Origin: Escherichia phage LF82-19
Sequence record: PV660457
Length of the DNA stretch: 52,748 nt
Strand: one strand, 5' to 3'
Below the pieces are notes generated by a model. The model was not told where the DNA came from. It did no database searches and saw only the letters and a list, made by a program, of their open reading frames with translations. Of the stretch, positions 2,190-26,787 are shown in pieces (within the stretch, counting starts at the first letter, position 1; each line of letters starts with the position of its first letter). Both the position numbers and the translations under genes were made by a program.

Positions 2190-3506
2190 ATGACTAAGCA
2201 GAAAAAGCCCGTCAAAATGGACTCGTACAACGAGACATTCAAGGGCGCAGGTACAGACCGCGCGCACAGCGGCCTAAACTATTATTACAACGTCACGCAG
2301 TTCTACATTGACAACCCGCTAGCCCGTAAGATTATCGACGTTATACCGGAGGAAATGGTTTTTCCTGGGTTCGGTATCGACGGCGAAACGGATGAGAAGG
2401 AATTTAAATCCCGATGGGATGCGCTGAAGATGAACGAGCAGATTGTTGAAGCGTTTGCGTGGGAACGCCTTTACGGTGGCTCAGCAATCGTGGCTGTGAT
2501 CAATGACCGCCGCGCGCTCACTTCGCCAGCCAAAGAGGGTGCCCCGCTTGAGTCTATCCGAGTGTACGAAAAGGAGCAGGTCAAGATCCAGACGCGAGAA
2601 ACCAACCCGCGTAATGTTCGCTACGGTATGCCGAAGACGTACACCATCAACCCTGGTGGCTCTATGCCTGAGTACGAGATCCACTATTCGCGAATCTACA
2701 TCAACGATGGTGATCGCGTGCCCGGTTCGGTTCGCCGTCAAAATGAGGGGTGGGGTGCTTCCGTTCTTTCTCGCGGAATGATTGATGCCATCACGGACTA
2801 TGACTACTGCGAAGAGCTTGCAACTCAGCTTTTACGCCGTAAGCAGCAAGCGGTGTGGAAGGCTCGCGGCCTGGCTGATTTATGCGATGATGATGAAGGG
2901 CGCTACGCGGCACGAATCAGGCTTGCTCAGGTTGACGATAACAGCGGCGTTGGGCGTGCGGTTGGTATTGATGCCACGGATGAAGAGTACGAAATCTTGA
3001 ACTCCGATATCAACGGCGTTGACGCTTTTCTTGATAAGAAAATGGATCGCATCGTGAACTATTCCGGCATCCATGAAATCATCCTGAAGAATAAGAACGT
3101 GGGCGGCGTTTCAGCGAGCCAAAACACGGCGCTTGAGACATTCTACAAGATGATTGACCGCCGCCGTAACGAGCGATACAGGCCGCTTCTGGAGTGGTTG
3201 TTGCCGTTCATGATTCAAGAGCAAGAATGGTCTATCCGGTTCGACCCTCTCTCTATGCCGTCAGAGAAAGAACAGGCTGAGACATTCGAGCGTTACACCA
3301 ATGCGGTTGACAAGCTGATCACGAATCAGGCTATTGACACCGAAGAGGCGCGCGATACACTTGAATCTGTTTCTGATGTGCTCAAGCTGAAATCCGGCTT
3401 GCCGAAGTTGCCGCCGCGCGATAAGACTGGCAAAGATCAGCAGGGTAAAGAGAAAGTAACCACACTGCCAAAAGGGGCTACAGATGAAGGTTCAGGGGAT
3501 AGCTAA
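2190..3506 (+). CDS. portal protein
   Basis: 438 aa immediately after terL, RBS GAGGAA; size and position. Confidence 0.8.
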   Translation: MTKQKKPVKMDSYNETFKGAGTDRAHSGLNYYYNVTQFYIDNPLARKIIDVIPEEMVFPGFGIDGETDEKEFKSRWDALKMNEQIVEAFAWERLYGGSAIVAVINDRRALTSPAKEGAPLESIRVYEKEQVKIQTRETNPRNVRYGMPKTYTINPGGSMPEYEIHYSRIYINDGDRVPGSVRRQNEGWGASVLSRGMIDAITDYDYCEELATQLLRRKQQAVWKARGLADLCDDDEGRYAARIRLAQVDDNSGVGRAVGIDATDEEYEILNSDINGVDAFLDKKMDRIVNYSGIHEIILKNKNVGGVSASQNTALETFYKMIDRRRNERYRPLLEWLLPFMIQEQEWSIRFDPLSMPSEKEQAETFERYTNAVDKLITNQAIDTEEARDTLESVSDVLKLKSGLPKLPPRDKTGKDQQGKEKVTTLPKGATDEGSGDS

Positions 3507-4248
3507 ACAGTGGCGCTATCCAGAAGCAAGCGAGCGGGAATTATCCCGCTCTCTGGCAACGTTCGCGGGTGAGCTTATCGTGTTTGCTCGCGATCAACTG
3601 GATAAGATGAAGTTTGACGCTAGCGCCGATGAGATAGATCAGGCAGAAAGCGAGCTTGAAGATTACGCCGCGTATCTGATCGCAGGTCTGATGGCCTTGC
3701 TTCCATCGCTGGCGCTGAAGATTTACCGCTTCAACTCGCAGCAGTTTATTGATGTTGCCAAATCTGCTGGCGGGAAAAAGAATCCGGTTGTGGTTCTGCT
3801 TATCGCTCTGGGATATAACGCTAACGAGCCGTGGTATCGTGAGAAAGAAGATAACTGGCTATCTCTCACAGAGGCAAGTTATCGTAAGCTGGCGAATGAT
3901 ATCATTGCTGACTGGTCTAACACCGTAAGGATGGAAAACGCCAAAGGCAAGAGCCGTGAGTATATCGACGATGTGATTGAGCAGCGTTACAAGGTGTATA
4001 CTGGCTGGACGGTAAACAGATCTCGTGGAATCGTTGCGACTTGGAATAGTTTACTGATGCGCGCGCGCCTGGAAGATTCAGGAGTGACGCATTATTTTTG
4101 GCATGGTAAACTTGACGAACGCGAGCGCCTTAAGCACTTGTTATGGGAGAACAAACGAATCGCCATAAACAGCGATCACGTATTCCCAGGTGAAGAATAC
4201 GGTTGCCGATGCTGGGCAACTCCTGACTTTTACAATATCGAGGAATGA
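3484..4248 (+). CDS. minor head / head morphogenesis protein
   Basis: 254 aa overlapping portal stop; position between portal and scaffold. Confidence 0.5.
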   Translation: MKVQGIAKQWRYPEASERELSRSLATFAGELIVFARDQLDKMKFDASADEIDQAESELEDYAAYLIAGLMALLPSLALKIYRFNSQQFIDVAKSAGGKKNPVVVLLIALGYNANEPWYREKEDNWLSLTEASYRKLANDIIADWSNTVRMENAKGKSREYIDDVIEQRYKVYTGWTVNRSRGIVATWNSLLMRARLEDSGVTHYFWHGKLDERERLKHLLWENKRIAINSDHVFPGEEYGCRCWATPDFYNIEE

Positions 4249-18700: not shown

Positions 18701-19278
18701 CCGACACTGAAGCCAGCATTACGCGAGTTGATAAAGCCATTGCTAGCGAGACTCAAGCCAGGGTTGAGGCAGATACAGCGCTTGGTGTTCGGGTTGGTAA
18801 CACTGAATCCGCCATCACGCAAAAGCTTGATTCATGGATTCAGAACGGGCAGCCGGGAGCGTCGTATAACGTCAAGTTGGGTATCAAGTACAACGGGCAG
18901 GAGTATAGCGCAGGGATGGGGATGCAGTTGGTTAGCGATCAGTATGGCGTTAGATCGCAAATCCTGTTTGACGCTGACCGATTCGCAGTTGGCAAGATTG
19001 AGAATGGCTCTATTCGTCAGTTGCCGTTTGTGATTGAGGGTAATCAGGTATTCATTCGTGATGCGCTGATTAAAAACGGCTCCATCACTAACGCAATGAT
19101 CGGAAACGTCATTCAGTCAAACAACTATGTTGCTGGTTGGGCTGGTTGGAGAATGGACAAGAACGGAAACCTTGAGATTAACGGCAGCGCCGGAAACGGA
19201 AGGCTGACCATTAACAACAACATCATTGCCGTATATGATGGTAACGGTGTGTTAAGAGTTCGAATGGGATTGTTCTAA
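15727..19278 (+). CDS. tail tip / host specificity protein (lambda J-like)
   Basis: 1183 aa after I-like gene; fibronectin-like middle region and C-terminal coiled repeats. Confidence 0.85.
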   Translation: MNKKVLVHGSKGGSPKPHTPQEMEDNLISINKIKVLLAISDGEIDPDFSLKDLYLNDVPVQSKEGTMNYDGVIAEFRPGTQTQSYIQGFTDTASEVTVNRALKQDNPFIFPVTNKSISAVRVKIFMPRGVKTESNGDMVGVRVEYAIDFAVDGGSYQEVLKDVIDGKTMSGYDRTKRINLPEFNDQVLVRVRRVTMDSTDARLIDEISVQSYAQVVDAKFRYPLTGLLYVELNSAMFPQMPNISVKKKWKLVKVPSNYDPVAREYHGTWDGSFKQAWSNNPAWVLYDLITNQRYGLDQRELGIDVDKWSLYEAGQYCDQLVPDGKGGTEPRYLCDVVIQSQIEAYTLVRDICSIFRGMSFWNGESLSIVIDRPRDASYIFTNDNVVGGSFSYTFASEKSMYTTCNVTFDDELNMYQQDVEAVFDLDASIRFGHNPTSITAIGCTRRSEANRRGRWILKTNLRSTTVSFATGLEGMIPMVGDVIAVADNFWQSNLTLSLSGRLMEVSGIQCFTHFRVDARPGDFIIVNKPDGKPVRRTIANVSADGKTIELNIGFGFAVQPNAVFAIDRQDLALQQYVVTGISKGDGDEEFTYSITAVEYDPNKYDEIDYGVNIDDRPTSIIDPDNMQPPENISVSSYSRIVQGMSVETMVIGWDKAQYASTYDVQWRKDNGNWINTPRTANTEVEVEGIYAGVYHVRVRSTSAAGNSSPWSSVVTVSLTGKVGKPGAPTSITASTDEVFGIRVKWGMPAGSEDTAYIELHQSKDGTPDNASLLTMIPYPQFEYWHAVLPAGYVNWYRARAVDRIGNVSDWSDFARGMASDDVDQILDVIKIDIEDSEIFKELAENAVDTANKIKDQAQTDIQNALANDYNLQWTRKQNGARKAEYGQAVILIANETEARVAAIEELRASINDDIIAQIKTIREAVANEEEARVKAVQELDAKFAGQIGDLQTATEASVSRLDEAIANESEARTQAISQLDAKFQGVIDGVKADTEASITRVDKAIASETQARVEADTALGVRVGNTESAITQKLDSWIQNGQPGASYNVKLGIKYNGQEYSAGMGMQLVSDQYGVRSQILFDADRFAVGKIENGSIRQLPFVIEGNQVFIRDALIKNGSITNAMIGNVIQSNNYVAGWAGWRMDKNGNLEINGSAGNGRLTINNNIIAVYDGNGVLRVRMGLF

Positions 19279-19283
19279 TAGAA

Positions 19284-19312
19284 AAGGGAGCCTTGCGGCT
19301 CCCTCTTTTTTT
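19284..19312. terminator. bidirectional terminator between convergent J and minus-strand genes
   Basis: GGGAGCC-ttgc-GGCTCCC flanked by T-run on + and A-run (T on minus). Confidence 0.55.
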
Positions 19313-19643
19313 ACATCACTTTATTGTAGATAACCGGGCTTCGGCTGGTTTGCTGGGTAATCATGTCAAGCTTGTATTCAGCGCCGCGATTCCACTCGAA
19401 GCGTAGCGTATAAGTGTTTACGTCGCCGTAGCACATTACGTGTTTGAACTTGCGCAGGTGCTTATCAAATATCACGTTTGTGCTTTCTTCAATATTCACC
19501 GTCCGATCCTGGCAGTTTACAACCGCCACGGTTGAGCCAGTAAGAGACATTCTGGAAGCGTCAACCGGATATCCGATATTAACGTTCAAAGCCATAGCGT
19601 TTAAAGGAGCTAAGAGAGCCATAGCGAGCATGATTTTTTCCAT
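19311..19643 (-). CDS. secreted small protein (signal peptide)
   Basis: start at MEKIM (RBS GAGGAA 7 nt upstream); N-terminus MLAMALLAPLNAMA looks like a signal peptidase I substrate; track ORF to 19688 is an extension. Confidence 0.45.
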   Translation of the reverse strand: MEKIMLAMALLAPLNAMALNVNIGYPVDASRMSLTGSTVAVVNCQDRTVNIEESTNVIFDKHLRKFKHVMCYGDVNTYTLRFEWNRGAEYKLDMITQQTSRSPVIYNKVM

Positions 19644-19674
19644 TGGTGTTTCCTCGATTCGTTTATTTAAATTG

Positions 19675-19717
19675 ATTATATCCACCAATCAGGGCGCGTG
19701 CTTAGCAATTCGTGCTA
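19675..19717 (-). promoter_or_regulatory. palindrome TAGCA-N5-TGCTA plus -10 TATAAT (22-nt gap)
   Basis: on minus: TAA-TAGCACGAATTGCTA, 22 nt, TATAAT; precedes secreted protein gene. Confidence 0.5.
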
Positions 19718-20368
19718 TTAGTTCCACCCAAGGAATCGAGCCATTGGAATCTTTAGGTTTCCGCGACCGTTGAAAATATCATTAAACCCTCGCTGATTTC
19801 GTCTGATCCATGTAGTCTGCAACTCCGAGCCAGTCCAGCGCATGAGGTTGCCAGAGTAACCAGAGGCAACGCCATCCGTTGACATTTCACCCATGCAGGA
19901 CTCCCACAGAAAGAATGGGTTGTAACCAGGTGATACGCTGGCAACGTTACCCTCAAGAGGCCAATTCCCGGCAACCTCAAGGAAGCCAGTTACACGAGGC
20001 ATTGAGGCAGCGCCCAAAGCAGACCAGATCAGTTGCCCGGAACCGTCGAACACGTCAAGCACGCCAGATGGAAAGTTTGCGTTTCTGGTTGTCCTGATCA
20101 CGCGGATTGAGTTTGGTAGGAACATATCAGATCCCGGAAACCCCCACGCGCCGTTAGAAAGAAATTGCACCCAATGCAAATATCCGTCTTGCTTCCTCGT
20201 GTTTTGGTTTAGGTAAGCCAGTGAGCTTATGTTGCCAAAAGGTGTGTTTAGGTTGTAGTCACCAGTATTTAAATATGACGGGTTGAAAGATGAGTGGTAG
20301 ATCGTGTGTTTCTGATCTGAGTTAATCATCATCGCCCCGGCGTTATTGTATACCTCAAAACCAGGCAT
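19718..20368 (-). CDS. hypothetical protein (MPG-paralog, long)
   Basis: 216 aa; shares MPG(F/L) N-terminus and (F/W)DGSG(Q/N)LI motif with the upstream 99-aa ORF. Confidence 0.45.
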   Translation of the reverse strand: MPGFEVYNNAGAMMINSDQKHTIYHSSFNPSYLNTGDYNLNTPFGNISSLAYLNQNTRKQDGYLHWVQFLSNGAWGFPGSDMFLPNSIRVIRTTRNANFPSGVLDVFDGSGQLIWSALGAASMPRVTGFLEVAGNWPLEGNVASVSPGYNPFFLWESCMGEMSTDGVASGYSGNLMRWTGSELQTTWIRRNQRGFNDIFNGRGNLKIPMARFLGWN

Positions 20369-20377
20369 ATTGCCCCC

Positions 20378-20677
20378 TCAGTTAAATTTGTAAATTTCGA
20401 TATCCATCGTCACATCGTTAAACGGGTTGCTTGTTGGTAGGTAGATAACATCAACAGCATTCTCACGCGTTACGCAAGCGTAAGCACTCCCTATGTAGAT
20501 GTTTGCGTATTTGATGCAAGCAAACGAGTTGTAACCGTTTATTCCGACAACAGCAAAAGACACGATCGAAGTCGAGCGCGGGAACACGATTTGCTGACGA
20601 TGCACAAAGCGAGTGCTGAAATCTCCGAGATCCACAATCAGATTTCCCGACCCATCCCATGCTTGTAAACCAGGCAT
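20378..20677 (-). CDS. hypothetical protein (MPG-paralog, short)
   Basis: 99 aa; RBS GAGGTGG; paralog of 19718-20368. Confidence 0.45.
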   Translation of the reverse strand: MPGLQAWDGSGNLIVDLGDFSTRFVHRQQIVFPRSTSIVSFAVVGINGYNSFACIKYANIYIGSAYACVTRENAVDVIYLPTSNPFNDVTMDIEIYKFN

Positions 20678-20712
20678 AATGCCACCTCGTGAGTTTGTTT
20701 GATTGAGTGCAA

Positions 20713-20741
20713 ATAATACACCAGCGAGCAGACAAAATCAA
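20713..20741 (-). promoter_or_regulatory. sigma70-like promoter for the minus-strand MPG operon
   Basis: on minus: TTGATT - 17 nt - TATTAT. Confidence 0.35.
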
Positions 20742-21115
20742 AGTCAACATGTCGTTCCTGTAGTTAGCTGTTAAGAAAATCACTTTCCGGCGATTTCGAT
20801 ACACGCAACTACAGAAAACTACAGCGTTATACATTGCGTAAGTATATATATAATAAGGGTTTATCTAATATTATTATTATTACTATATTCATGTTGTAGT
20901 TAGTGTAACGGTATCGTTTGGTGATTCCCGGATATCTTTTCGAATAGTTGAGTTAATTGTGTGGTTATTAGGATGCCGATACCTGGCTACCCCTCCGCAA
21001 TCCGCGTTAAAATCGATACACGCAACTACAGTCAGCATTCATGCGGGTTTGAAGGGTGTTTTTTGTAACGAATGCCATTATCGACAAAAAATAACACTAA
21101 CGACACGTTATATAT

Positions 21116-21143
21116 TTGACAAAGCGAATGAACCGCGTATACT
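21116..21143 (+). promoter_or_regulatory. strong sigma70-like early promoter
   Basis: TTGACA - 16 nt - TATACT, about 35 nt upstream of the exonuclease gene. Confidence 0.55.
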
Positions 21144-21176
21144 CAGCCACATCAACCACAACTGAGGAATAAAGTG

Positions 21177-22232
21177 ATGAATCCAACAAGACCTGAATCA
21201 GATTTTTTCTGGTTCACCAGCGATAAAATGCCGAACGATTTTTACCACGACAAAGAGGCATGGACTTTTGATTTCGTATCAGGCTCCAGCCTTTGCGACA
21301 TTCACCAATCGTCACCCGCTTCATGGTTCTTCGCCAAAAACGAGATCACAAAGGCGCTTGAGTTTGGTACTCAGTCACACACCAACTTTGAATCGAAGTC
21401 GCTGTTTGATGCAACGTATCGACGCGCACCAGCCCCGGAAGACTTCGAAAACTTGATTACGTCTCAGGCAGCGCTGGCTACGAAGTTGAAATCATTCGGC
21501 CTGACTGGTACAAGCGGGAAGCAATATCCAGAGCTGATCAAAATGATGGTTGATTGCGGTGAAGATCTTAACGTGTTGTGGCTTATTGATATGATCGCAC
21601 AGTGCCAGGCTTGGGCTGATGGCGTTGAGTTGGTCAAGGCTGAGGATTACGACAAGTGCAAGATGATGCGCGCCGTTCTGGAATCAGTGCCGGAATACGC
21701 AATGATGATGGAAAGCCCAACGGCAATGCACGAGCTTTCATTGTTCGGAAAGATCAGCGGCGTTGACGTAAAAGTCAGACTTGACTACGTTGACACGGTT
21801 ACTGATCCAAACCTCATTCGTCATTTTGGGTACGATCCAGAGCTACACCCTGAAATCATTGTGATTATGGACTACAAAACGACGAGCAGCGCCAACCCGG
21901 CAGATTTTGACCGAAAGGCATTCGATCTTGGGTATTATCTGAAGATGGCATTGCAGCGTGATTTATTCGTCAAAGTGTACGATGAGAAGCGCCCCGTTTG
22001 CTTGGTTCTGCTTACACAGGAAAAGAAAGAGCCATTCTTGCCACTTGGAAGGCCAATGACGCGCGAGCAGCTTCTTTTAGGCCGCAAGCAGTATATGGGT
22101 GTCATTCACACTTACTCGATCTGCAAGGAATCAAACGTTTGGCCTGGCTATGCAAACGGCGCTCCTTTCGTTAGCCTTGAAACGCCTGACTACATCAAGC
22201 GCCAGCATAAGGATATTTTCGGCGGAGAGTAA
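21177..22232 (+). CDS. PD-(D/E)xK-type exonuclease (putative recombination exonuclease)
   Basis: ATG 21177 with RBS GAGGAA; D ... IMDYKTT motif resembles D-(D/E)xK; adjacent to annealase and SSB. Confidence 0.45.
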   Translation: MNPTRPESDFFWFTSDKMPNDFYHDKEAWTFDFVSGSSLCDIHQSSPASWFFAKNEITKALEFGTQSHTNFESKSLFDATYRRAPAPEDFENLITSQAALATKLKSFGLTGTSGKQYPELIKMMVDCGEDLNVLWLIDMIAQCQAWADGVELVKAEDYDKCKMMRAVLESVPEYAMMMESPTAMHELSLFGKISGVDVKVRLDYVDTVTDPNLIRHFGYDPELHPEIIVIMDYKTTSSANPADFDRKAFDLGYYLKMALQRDLFVKVYDEKRPVCLVLLTQEKKEPFLPLGRPMTREQLLLGRKQYMGVIHTYSICKESNVWPGYANGAPFVSLETPDYIKRQHKDIFGGE

Positions 22233-23509: not shown

Positions 23510-23535
23510 AAAGGAGCCTTTCGGCTCCTTTTTTA
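23510..23535. terminator. bidirectional terminator between ssb and tail fiber
   Basis: AGGAGCC-tttc-GGCTCCT then TTTTTTATTT. Confidence 0.55.
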
Positions 23536-25752
23536 TTTCAGCAATAACGACTCAAGTTTAGCAAGGCGCTCTTCCATTTCCTCCATTCTGTTACCCATGT
23601 AAACCATAGCACAGGCCATATCAGTAAGCATGACGTTTGAATCAAGAGCTAGCGTATCGTCCTTAAATCCAGTCTCGATCTGCCTGGCAACGTACTCCTC
23701 ACCATTCTCGTTGACTCCGATAACATCTTCAAAGATCGGAGCGCCAGGGACTACTTTCACATACTGACTATCAACTTTATTCAAGTCCTGAGCAATCAGA
23801 CCGAATCTCTGTGTGTCAGATCCCTTATACTTGAACATGGTTGGGAGCCACTGCATTACGCGATCATAGCTCTCCTTTCCTTCGGTGTATTTGATATCCC
23901 ACTTAAGATCCCGGTCAGACGTTGGCGCTTTCTGGAATGTATACCCCCCATCCCATCCTCCACCCTGACCCCATGAGATAATATCTGATGATGGTGCATG
24001 GAATTCAAATCCGCGATGGTACGCACCATCACCAAGCATCTTAATTACTGCGCGAGGCCATCCGTTGTTCCCGCTAGAAATCATACCAAGAGAGGTATTC
24101 ATTCGATACCCGCCAGTTGATGTGGTTGCCCCTGAGATCAATGAAGCATATCCGGCATCATTACCCGTTACATCACCAGCAAAGAACGTACTCCCCATGT
24201 AATCATTTGGCTGCGCCCAACCTCCTTGAGTTAACTTACCAAGAAACCCCCTTGGAGAAGATATGTGACCGCCGTATGAGTTTATGAATTTAAACTCCTT
24301 CCAGTCACTTCCTTGGTTGTTCACTCCGATCTTGAAGTGATCAATATCAGTGCCACTACCGCGAACCCCCCCAATCTGCCAGTAACCAGAGTACCAGTTA
24401 CCTTGAACCAGGTTAACCCAACTATTAACAGAGCCATCACCAGCAGCGTTTTGAATCAGGATGTTTTTGTTTCCGCCACTCTGAGTTGAAACAACGATCG
24501 ATTTACCCTGCTTTGCCTCTACGTTTCCGTTTGTTGCAACCAGAGCGCCGCCGCTAATCGTTCCGACGGCTGTCAGCGATGCAACTCCGGTAATGTTCCC
24601 CGCCTCATCAAACTGATAGTAGTTCCCCTTTCCTCCAGCCGTGTTTGCCGTGTGAATCGTTGTCTTTACAACGCCGCCTTGTAGTTCATTGTAAAATCTT
24701 GAGTTTGATTGCAGCGTTGCGCCGTCAGCAGAAAGCCTTTTACTCTCAATCAGCCCCCCACTAGTTGCTGAGCCAAGTGTTGTAGCCTCCACGCCTCCAA
24801 ATCTCACCGCTTGACCCGAGCCGATACCAAGATTGTTTCTTGCTCCGTCAGCAGTTGTTGATCCAGTGCCACCAGATCCGATAGGGATCGGGATTACATT
24901 TCCGTTACTATCCTGCCACTGGAAAATCCCATCATCGCCAATCGTCAGCCTTTTTGTTCTATCTGGCGTGCTAATGTAGTTACGCGTTCCAATGTGGCGC
25001 AGCCAGTCAAGATCAAGGTTCGTCCTCGCGGCTTGTACGTCAGTAAGATCAGATAGGTTATTTGCCTTCTTTAGCTGTTCGTCAGGGTTAGCCGTTGCTG
25101 CGCGGTCTGCTTCAGCCTTGGCTCGTGCTGCATCGTCACGAGCGGCGGCGGCAGATTGCCCGGCGCTGGTTTCGCTGTTTGCTGCATTCGTCTCGCTTAC
25201 CCTGGCGGCATCCTTGCTGGCTCCGGCTTGGGTTGCGGCAACTTCGGCGGCAACGCGTTGCTGATAAGCTTGCTGGTTCTGGCTTCCGGCCTCGCTTGCA
25301 CTTTGTGCGGCGGCGTTCTTGCTTGCCTCAGCTTCGTTTGCGTTAACTTCAGTACGATCAGCATCAACGCGAACGGCAGACTGAAGATCTTTCAGCTCTT
25401 GCAGGTTAAAGTTCTTGAAGAAATCCATAGCCTCCTCGATCACAGTTTCCTTGCTTTGGTAGTAGCGCAGAGTTTCAGCCACATCTTGAGCAAGGCCATC
25501 AACAGTGATTGAGTCATGCAGCAGGATTACATAGTTCGTACCATCCGGCACAACTGCATCATCCGTTTGGATCGCTCGCATTTCCGTGTCACTCACGATC
25601 GCGGAAATAGTAACCAGCGTTAGTGGTTGAGTTAAAAACACCATCGTTGCCCCAACGCGAATCAGAGACAGCTTGTCTTGCCATTTCGTATCAACGCCAG
25701 TTACAACGCCGTTAGCGGCCAATCCCGCCGTTCCTCTACGATAAATCGCCAT
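23533..25752 (-). CDS. tail fiber with C-terminal peptidase S74 intramolecular chaperone domain
   Basis: C-terminus DRDLKWDIKY ... GLIAQDL ... LAKLESLL typical of the autocleaving chaperone domain of fibers/endosialidases; Gly/Ser/Thr-rich beta-like middle; start at ATG 25752. Confidence 0.75.
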   Translation of the reverse strand: MAIYRRGTAGLAANGVVTGVDTKWQDKLSLIRVGATMVFLTQPLTLVTISAIVSDTEMRAIQTDDAVVPDGTNYVILLHDSITVDGLAQDVAETLRYYQSKETVIEEAMDFFKNFNLQELKDLQSAVRVDADRTEVNANEAEASKNAAAQSASEAGSQNQQAYQQRVAAEVAATQAGASKDAARVSETNAANSETSAGQSAAAARDDAARAKAEADRAATANPDEQLKKANNLSDLTDVQAARTNLDLDWLRHIGTRNYISTPDRTKRLTIGDDGIFQWQDSNGNVIPIPIGSGGTGSTTADGARNNLGIGSGQAVRFGGVEATTLGSATSGGLIESKRLSADGATLQSNSRFYNELQGGVVKTTIHTANTAGGKGNYYQFDEAGNITGVASLTAVGTISGGALVATNGNVEAKQGKSIVVSTQSGGNKNILIQNAAGDGSVNSWVNLVQGNWYSGYWQIGGVRGSGTDIDHFKIGVNNQGSDWKEFKFINSYGGHISSPRGFLGKLTQGGWAQPNDYMGSTFFAGDVTGNDAGYASLISGATTSTGGYRMNTSLGMISSGNNGWPRAVIKMLGDGAYHRGFEFHAPSSDIISWGQGGGWDGGYTFQKAPTSDRDLKWDIKYTEGKESYDRVMQWLPTMFKYKGSDTQRFGLIAQDLNKVDSQYVKVVPGAPIFEDVIGVNENGEEYVARQIETGFKDDTLALDSNVMLTDMACAMVYMGNRMEEMEERLAKLESLLLK

Positions 25753-25775
25753 TGTCAACACCTCTTGTTAGTAAA

Positions 25776-25790
25776 TAGCACGAATTGCTA
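25776..25790. promoter_or_regulatory. palindrome TAGCACGAATTGCTA downstream of tail-fiber -10
   Basis: lies between the extended -10 and the RBS of the tail fiber gene, opposite in orientation to early-promoter copies. Confidence 0.45.
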
Positions 25791-25796
25791 AAACGC

Positions 25797-25805
25797 ATTA
25801 TATCA
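25797..25805 (-). promoter_or_regulatory. extended -10 element (TGATATAAT) for tail fiber gene
   Basis: TGnTATAAT on minus strand about 45 nt upstream of ATG. Confidence 0.4.
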
Positions 25806-25817
25806 GGCATTCAGGCA

Positions 25818-25841
25818 ATAAAAAACCCTCCGAAGAGGGTT
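25818..25841 (-). terminator. rho-independent terminator after primase
   Basis: on minus: AACCCTC-ttcg-GAGGGTT then TTTTTTATT. Confidence 0.5.
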
Positions 25842-25851
25842 GTTGTTCGAT

Positions 25852-26787
25852 TTACTCCAGTCTGTCAATAAGAGATTGCGGATCGTATAGCCTACGCTGC
25901 ATCCCCTGGCGGAAATTGTCATTGTTCGGCAAGATTACCCTCAGATCCCGATCGTCAGCCATGCACAGGGTTTGGTAATCGGTAGACAGGCAAGCAACGC
26001 GAAGCTCACGATCTCCTTTGTATCGCCAAGCCACAATTTCAAGGTTCTCGGGCGTGAAAGTGACCCATACTTCCTGATTGGTTGCCGTCGCTACGCGATG
26101 CCCTTCGATTATGTCGCACACCAGATAAATAGAGCCAGTGCCAGCACCAAGCTTAACAACTGAACCGCGAGAATGATCGCGAGCCATAAAAGAATATTCC
26201 CCACTTTCATTAACAAACAGGATATTACACATTTCATCATCCAATCCTTCCGGTTGAGCGAGATAGCACGGATATGCATGAATAAGCGATTCTCCGCCAT
26301 TCTCGCGAGGTTTTACGCCTACAATGAATGATTCATCCAATAGGCACTCATAAACGCTTAGAGGCGTGCTGGCTCGCAATTCAGTGCGCTCCATAACAGC
26401 CATACAGGCATCGTGATCAACTTGCTTGCCAATATTGGCATCGGTTGTTCTCGCTATGCGCTTGTAAGCCTTCACGCGGTACTCTTGCGGAACCTTGCCC
26501 AAGAAGCGCCCCAGGATGTTAACCGCCTCGCTGTATGGCTCACCAGTCAGCTTCATGACCCAGCCAATGCCTTTATCGTTACCGCATGCGTTACAGATCG
26601 CCCCGCCGTCACCCTTCGACTCAAGGTTATCAGTCCAGCGGAAGCGGTCATTGCCGCCACAGTTTGGGCATGGCTGGTGTTTGCCATTGAATACGGTTGA
26701 GGGAAGAGCGCATATTGACTGCAACGCCTCGCGCCATAATCCTTTCATGTATGGCAAAACTTCCTCTTTCTGGTACATCATCGACAT
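25852..26787 (-). CDS. DNA primase (zinc ribbon + TOPRIM-like)
   Basis: N-terminal CPNCGG ... CNACG four-Cys zinc ribbon; followed by acidic-motif catalytic region. Confidence 0.6.
   Translation of the reverse strand: MSMMYQKEEVLPYMKGLWREALQSICALPSTVFNGKHQPCPNCGGNDRFRWTDNLESKGDGGAICNACGNDKGIGWVMKLTGEPYSEAVNILGRFLGKVPQEYRVKAYKRIARTTDANIGKQVDHDACMAVMERTELRASTPLSVYECLLDESFIVGVKPRENGGESLIHAYPCYLAQPEGLDDEMCNILFVNESGEYSFMARDHSRGSVVKLGAGTGSIYLVCDIIEGHRVATATNQEVWVTFTPENLEIVAWRYKGDRELRVACLSTDYQTLCMADDRDLRVILPNNDNFRQGMQRRLYDPQSLIDRLE

Follow-up and report, generated by a model that had tools for sequence, protein, structure and literature searches.

The window analysed here is the 52,748-nucleotide DNA of Escherichia phage LF82-19 (sequence record PV660457), which is 100% identical in DNA to Escherichia phages LF82-10, LF82-11, LF82-12 and LF82-40. 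Judging from its relatives, this is a T1-like siphovirus of the family Drexlerviridae, subfamily Tempevirinae. Behind the J-like tail-tip gene, and convergent with the tail operon, lies a minus-strand cassette of three genes for proteins of 99, 216 and 110 amino acids (aa), with the same positions and sizes as in a preliminary description of this DNA that had been made from the letters alone (Table 1). We refer to the products as RBP-2 (99 aa), RBP-1 (216 aa; RBP, receptor-binding protein) and SIP-1 (110 aa). The GenBank record of LF82-10 (PV660453) holds the same three coding sequences, all annotated as hypothetical. The cassette is a receptor-binding and exclusion locus of the YncD/PqqU type, a type that has already been interpreted in silico in a sister phage.

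Table 1. Features of the cassette and its surroundings, in positions of the window.
Feature	Position	Strand	Basis or remark
J-like central tail fibre / tail-tip gene, 1183 aa	15727-19278	+	Open reading frame; annotated tail protein; Bas11 counterpart annotated J-like tail tip protein
Bidirectional intrinsic terminator, AGGGAGCC-TTGC-GGCTCCCT, T-runs on both strands	19285-19304		Terminator scan and sequence reading
SIP-1-like gene, 110 aa	19311-19643	-	Sec signal peptide residues 1-18 (19590-19643); mature part 92 aa
Conserved 74-nt spacer between RBP-1 and SIP-1 genes	19644-19717	-	Alignment with Bas11, Bas10 and IME347
RBP-1-like gene, 216 aa, all-beta	19718-20368	-	Predicted main receptor-binding protein for YncD/PqqU
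RBP-2-like gene, 99 aa	20378-20677	-	Directly upstream of RBP-1; predicted heterodimer partner
Promoter-like site TTGATT-17-TATTAT	20713-20741	-	Consensus scan; shortly 5' of the 99-aa gene and on the border of the exchanged block
Exonuclease VIII gene	21174-22232	+	Cassette lies between J and exonuclease VIII

Conservation, relatives and predicted receptor

All three are genuine conserved genes and not chance open reading frames. Homologues occur in 58 (216-aa protein), 49 (99-aa protein) and 43 (110-aa protein) phage records. Among the 80 IMG/VR loci that were located with the 216-aa family, the 110-aa homologue was present in every one and adjoined the RBP gene in 79, and a gene of ~100 aa stood immediately upstream of the 216-aa homologue on the same strand in 79 of the 80. 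This upstream gene also precedes RBP-1 in HK639 and in the Acinetobacter N4-like phage Presley, where the pair follows a large tail protein, an occurrence that may be new. The 216-aa family is small, with 60 clusters found by profile search in 1.84 billion representative proteins. The 110-aa homologue was not found in the Cronobacter, Pantoea, Enterobacter and Acinetobacter phages that have distant RBP homologues. Exceptions to the tight linkage of the RBP genes and SIP-1 are three phages of ~45 kb, KW1E_UTAR (MZ506873), vB_KM5a1-KLB22 and vB_KM5a1-KLB16, in which the SIP-1 homologue lies ~16-29 kb from RBP-1/RBP-2. Searches of Pfam, NCBIfam and PADLOC gave no named function for the three proteins and PDB sequence searches were empty for all of them, in agreement with the earlier remark that none is recognisable by sequence; their PHROGs matches are families of unknown function, and the 216-aa family bears the precomputed Pfam label PF28254.

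At the DNA level the cassette shares 84% identity with that of the BASEL phage JohannLBurckhardt (Bas11), and it is homologous to those of IsaakIselin (Bas10) and IME347; each of these three phages carries counterparts of all the genes, in unchanged order and likewise directly after gpJ. Over 100% of its length, RBP-1 shares 90% aa identity with its Bas11, 60% with its Bas10 and 67% with its IME347 counterpart; the corresponding values are 85%, 64% (QXV80561) and 49% for RBP-2, and 89%, 85% and 59% for SIP-1. Both Bas10 and Bas11 are recorded as dependent on YncD (BASEL table S1), yncD complementation has been shown for Bas10, and IME347 is cited as YncD-dependent. Maffei et al. described, in small siphoviruses, "bona fide RBP loci" directly downstream of gpJ whose alleles track the terminal receptor without exception, with cognate superinfection-exclusion genes alongside (Maffei et al., 2021; PMC8594841). 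The locus studied here fits this type in position, with the J gene ending at 19278, the cassette at 19311-20677 and the exonuclease VIII gene starting at 21174, so that the expectation of receptor-related genes at this post-tail site is supported, here with the YncD allele. A 2026 preprint (10.64898/2026.04.02.716166) delimits a YncD-specific RBP family, with accessory proteins, by >30% identity and >99% coverage relative to RBPs from phages whose YncD dependence was established by experiment; RBP-1 falls within it, being 60-90% identical over its full length to the Bas11, IME347 and Bas10 proteins.

YncD is the same protein as PqqU, the TonB-dependent importer of pyrroloquinoline quinone (PQQ) (PMC12124388, Sci Adv 2025), and its gene pqqU/yncD was present in 5414 of 5426 complete E. 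coli genomes. In the same study, AlphaFold-multimer paired IsaakIselin QXV80560 (RBP-1, 217 aa) with QXV80561 (RBP-2, 101 aa) in a heterodimer that sits against the open extracellular face of PqqU, while QXV80559 (SIP-1, 110 aa, SignalP-positive) was modelled at the periplasmic face; Foldseek likened SIP-1 to the TonB C-terminal domain, and the authors read it as a TonB domain repurposed against superinfection (PMC12124388).

With a probability of about 0.8, we read the cassette as a whole as a YncD/PqqU-type host-recognition module with an RBP-1/RBP-2 heterodimer, exclusion by SIP-1 and a history of horizontal exchange. RBP-2 and RBP-1 would be made together and form a heterodimer, which would attach to the distal end of J, the trimeric tail-tip protein, and bind the extracellular face of PqqU in its open, ligand-free state, leading to commitment to DNA injection. 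SIP-1, with a predicted fold like that of the TonB C-terminal domain, would be exported to the periplasm through its cleavable signal peptide, bind the periplasmic face of YncD/PqqU, and lock PqqU in a state that the phage's own RBP could not use. Infected cells and lysis debris would then cease adsorbing phages of the same receptor, a superinfection exclusion like that by T5 Llp, T1 Cor and Rtp45. The present analysis supplies the gene structure, homology, synteny, fold similarity and mosaic boundaries, and earlier work by others the YncD dependence of Bas10, Bas11 and IME347; of this scheme, the physical binding, the heterodimer, the docking on J and the exclusion activity are inferred or modelled only.

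The receptor-binding pair and SIP-1

The 99- and 216-aa proteins had initially been described as paralogs that share an MPG(F/L) start and a motif, which reads WDGSGNLI at residues 7-14 of the 99-aa protein and FDGSGQLI at residues 107-114 of the 216-aa protein. Full-length paralogy was rejected by three comparisons: BLASTP gave no significant similarity (E = 1.7), hhalign a probability of 5% over the full lengths, and the RBP-1 profile matched no ~100-aa family among the 1.84 billion representatives. What stands of the claim is confined to the N-termini and the motif itself. Residues 1-31 of the 99-aa family align with residues 1-31 of the 216-aa family at a probability of 90-92% (E = 8e-7 and 2e-6), and a further copy of the hairpin motif opens the second half of the 216-aa protein, there at motif level only (P ~0.002-0.004); the first ~31 residues are thus homologous, but the two motif copies first noticed occupy non-equivalent positions. 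We take the hairpin motif to resemble the QxDGNLV motif of bulb-type lectins.

The predicted fold of RBP-1 is structurally similar to the solved LptD-binding RBP of Oekolampad (9rpt_C) at a sequence identity of 8%. Its model also matched, in BFVD, ~15 uncharacterised proteins of 200-310 aa from Acinetobacter, Pseudomonas, Achromobacter and Proteus phages and one "bulb-type lectin domain" protein. A 2179-aa protein of the representative library (P0084) contains 12 separate stretches matching RBP-1 profile positions 62-103, and a piece of the RBP-1 fold may therefore occur as a tandem repeat in this giant protein. An apparent N-terminal module heading Cronobacter "tail fibre" proteins was dropped, as the matches are unannotated small open reading frames after J that the annotated feature only overlaps. 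In the record of Cronobacter phage ENT39118, a small RBP-2-like frame just after J (L245, ~3501-3790) is unannotated.

The earlier suggestion that the pair are receptor-binding accessory proteins is supported as to receptor binding, but the pair is predicted to be the receptor-binding unit itself and not a mere accessory to it. A different division of labour is conceivable, in which only the 216-aa protein is a virion RBP and the 99-aa protein acts as a non-structural chaperone or adaptor for RBP-1 folding or J attachment, with no receptor contact. The small size of the 99-aa gene, its tight coupling to RBP-1 and its constant upstream position are typical of chaperone genes, and the LptD-type locus makes do with one 311-aa protein (Rtp44 / RBP_Oeko), which binds LptDE alone in vitro. 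However, the published AlphaFold2 (AF2)-multimer model places both proteins at the PqqU interface (PMC12124388), the 31 N-terminal residues common to the two suggest a structural subunit of the same kind, and 99 + 216 aa approximates the length of single-chain Rtp44 (311 aa). We consider the chaperone or adaptor role unlikely.

SIP-1 starts with a signal peptide, as the preliminary description had recognised (MEKIMLAMALLAPLNAMA, followed by LN); its n-region, hydrophobic core and A-x-A cleavage site can be read from the sequence, and the Bas10 orthologue is SignalP-positive (PMC12124388). In this phage the protein has no lipobox and no Cys near the cleavage site between NAMA and LN, while its mature part carries two invariant Cys. 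When the SIP-1 model was used in a fold search, nearly all matches were C-terminal domains of TonB and TolA, the model itself being of low confidence, and the invariant YPV[DE]A......G of the SIP-1 family aligned in register with E. coli TonB YPARAQALRIEG (hhalign P = 0.008, one targeted comparison). These fold matches, together with the modelling of the Bas10 SIP-1, agree with the early proposal of the secreted protein as a candidate exclusion factor, a role that stays predicted.

Like proteins of the Cor/Llp/Rtp45 kind, SIP-1 is a small exported protein encoded beside the RBP gene (in 79 of 80 IMG/VR loci). In HK639 and 74 related IMG/VR loci, J, the ~100-aa gene and a ~213-aa gene are co-oriented and the SIP-1 homologue is convergent just behind them. 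Its place corresponds to that of cor in T1, where cor follows J, ST32 and ST31 and is encoded on the other strand. The homologues of this HK639 type mostly have lipoprotein signals such as MKRLFAAALLLLAGC, with LLAGC-type lipoboxes, whereas the T1-like versions, including that of this phage, have a cleavable non-lipoprotein signal. A tentative reading is that the TonB-like exclusion factor began as an outer-membrane lipoprotein in temperate phages and that the lipid anchor was lost in virulent T1-like phages; the split between lipoprotein and soluble forms and the cor-like placement in temperate phages are possibly new. The HK639 record itself contains, convergent to HK639_25, an unannotated 120-aa lipoprotein open reading frame starting MKLLFAAALLLVAGC that is a SIP-1 homologue (HM208537 ~23535-23897, minus strand; L009 520-882). 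The HK639-type SIP-1 lipoprotein gene was found in 3 of 5426 complete E. coli genomes, all of them pig isolates, and prophage-borne protection of PqqU is therefore rare in E. coli and not a common cause of resistance.

We had considered that SIP-1 excludes by blocking a TonB-dependent step of infection, but dropped this idea: given that IsaakIselin infects a tonB deletion strain (PMC12124388), denial of TonB energy is unlikely. Jamming or allosteric closure of the receptor, as has been shown for Llp on FhuA and for Rtp45 on LptD, is more likely. We predict that SIP-1 works like an exclusion factor of the Cor/Llp/Rtp45 type while standing outside those families.

SIP-1 could instead be a TonB mimic that alters host physiology, for instance through a general shutdown of TonB-dependent uptake or by guarding infected cells against TonB-dependent colicins or other phages, or it could serve another envelope process, without being an exclusion factor. 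A TonB-C-terminal-domain-like fold might, in principle, recognise the Ton boxes of numerous transporters, the T1-like 110-aa protein is soluble and not anchored in the outer membrane, and in a few phages its gene lies ~28 kb from the RBP genes. This is nevertheless improbable, more so than a chaperone role for RBP-2: the gene accompanies this RBP family in 80 of 80 IMG/VR loci, 79 of them adjacent, but no copy turned up in those Cronobacter, Pantoea, Enterobacter and Acinetobacter phages whose RBP homologues are distant; its place is that of cor / llp / rtp45; and AF2 puts the SIP-1 orthologue specifically on PqqU.

Several observations weigh against a YncD/PqqU module with SIP-1 as its exclusion factor. 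The SIP-1 model has a predicted local distance difference test (pLDDT) score of 61 and a predicted template modelling (pTM) score of 0.46, both low, and the targeted alignment with TonB reaches only P = 0.008; hidden Markov model searches retrieved no TonB Pfam family (18 members scanned), and a profile search of PDB sequences with the SIP-1 family retrieved no TonB chain. The lipid anchor common to all proven exclusion proteins (Llp, Cor, Rtp45) is absent from the SIP-1 of this phage, which has no sequence similarity to T1 Cor or Rtp45 either (hhalign probability <1%; Llp was not compared separately). The assignments of phage proteins in PMC12124388 are computational only, being AlphaFold models. 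As for the receptor, use of YncD/PqqU by this phage is predicted from the receptors of its relatives, and given that closely similar cassettes (88% aa identity) occur in Klebsiella phages, receptor use beyond E. coli is an assumption. RBP-1 homologues occur in Acinetobacter podoviruses too, which suggests that the fold is a general adhesin scaffold and that the fold alone is no proof of YncD specificity. That fast divergence of RBP alleles has given this phage a receptor other than YncD/PqqU is nonetheless very improbable, since, although RBP-1 is just 60% identical to that of Bas10 and 67% to that of IME347 and has its closest relatives besides Bas11 in Klebsiella phages, it is 90% identical to that of YncD-dependent Bas11, Bas10 still uses YncD at 60% identity so that the clade spans this divergence without a receptor switch, SIP-1 is 85-89% identical to the Bas10 and Bas11 versions, and pqqU is a core E. 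coli gene.

Expression signals, module exchange and surroundings

A Shine-Dalgarno site is present for each of the three genes, and the 99- and 216-aa genes are separated by 7 nt. The reading frame of the 110-aa protein extends to a TTG at 19688 (125-aa form), but the 110-aa form is preferred because a GAGGA Shine-Dalgarno site precedes the ATG at 19643 and homologues start with MKK. The terminator sits between J and the 110-aa gene, a convergent pair. In the alignment with Bas11, Bas10 and IME347, the spacer between the RBP-1 and SIP-1 genes contains an invariant GCACGAATTGCTAA, a hairpin and a TATAAT/TATACT hexamer; the hairpin stem varies among phages yet its pairing is kept (GCCCCG-N4-CGGGGC in Bas10 and IME347). 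The spacer may allow separate expression or regulation of the exclusion gene from the RBP genes. A sigma-70 promoter before the 110-aa gene was considered and dropped, because a gap of 22 nt between its TTGCTA and TATAAT hexamers is too wide. The consensus promoter scan returned no more sites than the shuffled expectation, hence the promoter-like site 5' of the 99-aa gene is weak.

The cassette also stands out in its relationships along the genome. By megablast, the 82-84% similarity to Bas11, Samwise, Skenny and the mtp phages is confined to 19063-20721, a block running from the last ~215 nt of J (19063-19278) to just upstream of the 99-aa gene, while the flanking J body and recombination genes are nearest to NBD2, KLB19 and HazelMika at ~75%. 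The guanine plus cytosine (GC) fraction is 0.435-0.467 over 19000-21000, compared to ~0.50 elsewhere in the genome, and this low GC across the cassette is consistent with horizontal acquisition. Sequence comparison thus suggests that 19063-20721 moves horizontally, as a single piece, from one phage backbone to another, and the mosaic boundaries and GC dip fit the view of the preprint that the exchanged locus includes the tip of J, which must fit the RBP.

Such a cassette would decide which outer-membrane protein is used, here predicted to be the PQQ importer YncD/PqqU, encoded by a core E. coli gene. Knowledge of the receptor would allow host range and resistance routes to be predicted for phages isolated on the Crohn's-associated strain LF82, and a discrete, swappable cassette is a natural unit for engineering receptor specificity. 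If the prediction for SIP-1 is true, it would be a phage copy of a host energy-transducing domain used to switch off the phage's own receptor, and the first non-lipoprotein exclusion factor of the Cor/Llp/Rtp45 class.

Between the cassette and the exonuclease VIII gene lies an AT-rich divergent intergenic region of ~500 bp (20678-21173). It has an (ATA)n stretch around 20860-20880, and both strands carry promoter-like sequences, among them a near-consensus TTGACA-16-TATACT directed toward exonuclease VIII at 21116-21143. A lateral tail fibre gene (23533-25899, minus strand) lies after the recombination genes, an arrangement shared with T1, Rtp and Bas11, and is a second host-range determinant distinct from the cassette.

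Comparison with known systems

The closest systems, those of Bas10, Bas11 and IME347, have the same genes, gene order and predicted roles; the locus described here differs in its backbone and in the isolation host, the pathogenic strain LF82. For SIP-1, the nearest comparison is the C-terminal domain of TonB (E. coli TonB residues ~150-239), from which it differs as a stand-alone exported domain with an added disulfide pair and without the membrane anchor or proline-rich linker of TonB. In the T5 system on FhuA, pb5 is a 640-aa monomer, and Llp is a lipoprotein that jams the unfolded FhuA plug and leaves the TonB box untouched, whereas SIP-1 is predicted to be TonB-C-terminal-domain-like and, in this phage, is not lipidated.

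The FhuA type of T1, N15 and HK022 has the same architecture of J, a ~100-aa gene, a ~220-aa gene and a small exported protein. In T1 these are ST32 (101 aa), ST31 (229 aa) and the Cor lipoprotein (~75 aa), which is unrelated in sequence to SIP-1, and the receptor is FhuA; the T1 pair reads in the same direction as J, in contrast to the inversion of the entire cassette in the phage studied here. In the FhuA and the YncD type alike, a G-x-x-x-[WFY]-[DN]-x-x-G hairpin opens both the small and the large protein and returns within the large one at residue ~105-112: the T1 copies are MAYGISTWDANG in ST32, MSYGAFIDVNGN at the N-terminus of ST31 and WGMAIWDASGKLVL at ST31 residue ~110, and the pattern occurs three times in the YncD cassette as well. 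Unit starts of the YncD and FhuA types were joined in register by hhalign (E = 5e-5 to 9e-5), and one third of Rtp44 at 9e-4, while past the motif of ~12-16 residues no similarity between FhuA and YncD cassettes was detectable. The LptD type (Rtp44 and the RBP of Oekolampad, PDB 9rpt; exclusion lipoprotein Rtp45) has one 311-aa chain in place of the 99 + 216 aa pair, and in Rtp44 (311 aa, ~99 + 216) a related segment can be seen, by eye only, at residues ~1, 113 and 208. Its receptor is not a TonB-dependent transporter, and Rtp45 is a 6-kDa lipoprotein of another fold, with no similarity to SIP-1. The idea that whole ~100-aa units are homologous across the YncD, FhuA and LptD types was dropped, since hhalign supports only their first 12-31 residues.

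These likenesses lead us to a tentative and rather doubtful idea, namely that the gpJ-downstream RBP modules, which have been called "unrelated families", are divergent forms of one ancestor of three ~100-residue beta units, every one of them headed by the hairpin described above, and, separately, that an exclusion factor of lipoprotein origin lost its anchor. Such a three-unit ancestor would have been split 1+2 in the YncD (99 + 216 aa) and FhuA (ST32 + ST31) types and fused in the LptD type (Rtp44, 311 aa), and three like units could form a pseudo-threefold cap, by which the J trimer would be fitted at its tip to one asymmetric receptor in the outer membrane. The architecture shared between the cassette types is possibly new.

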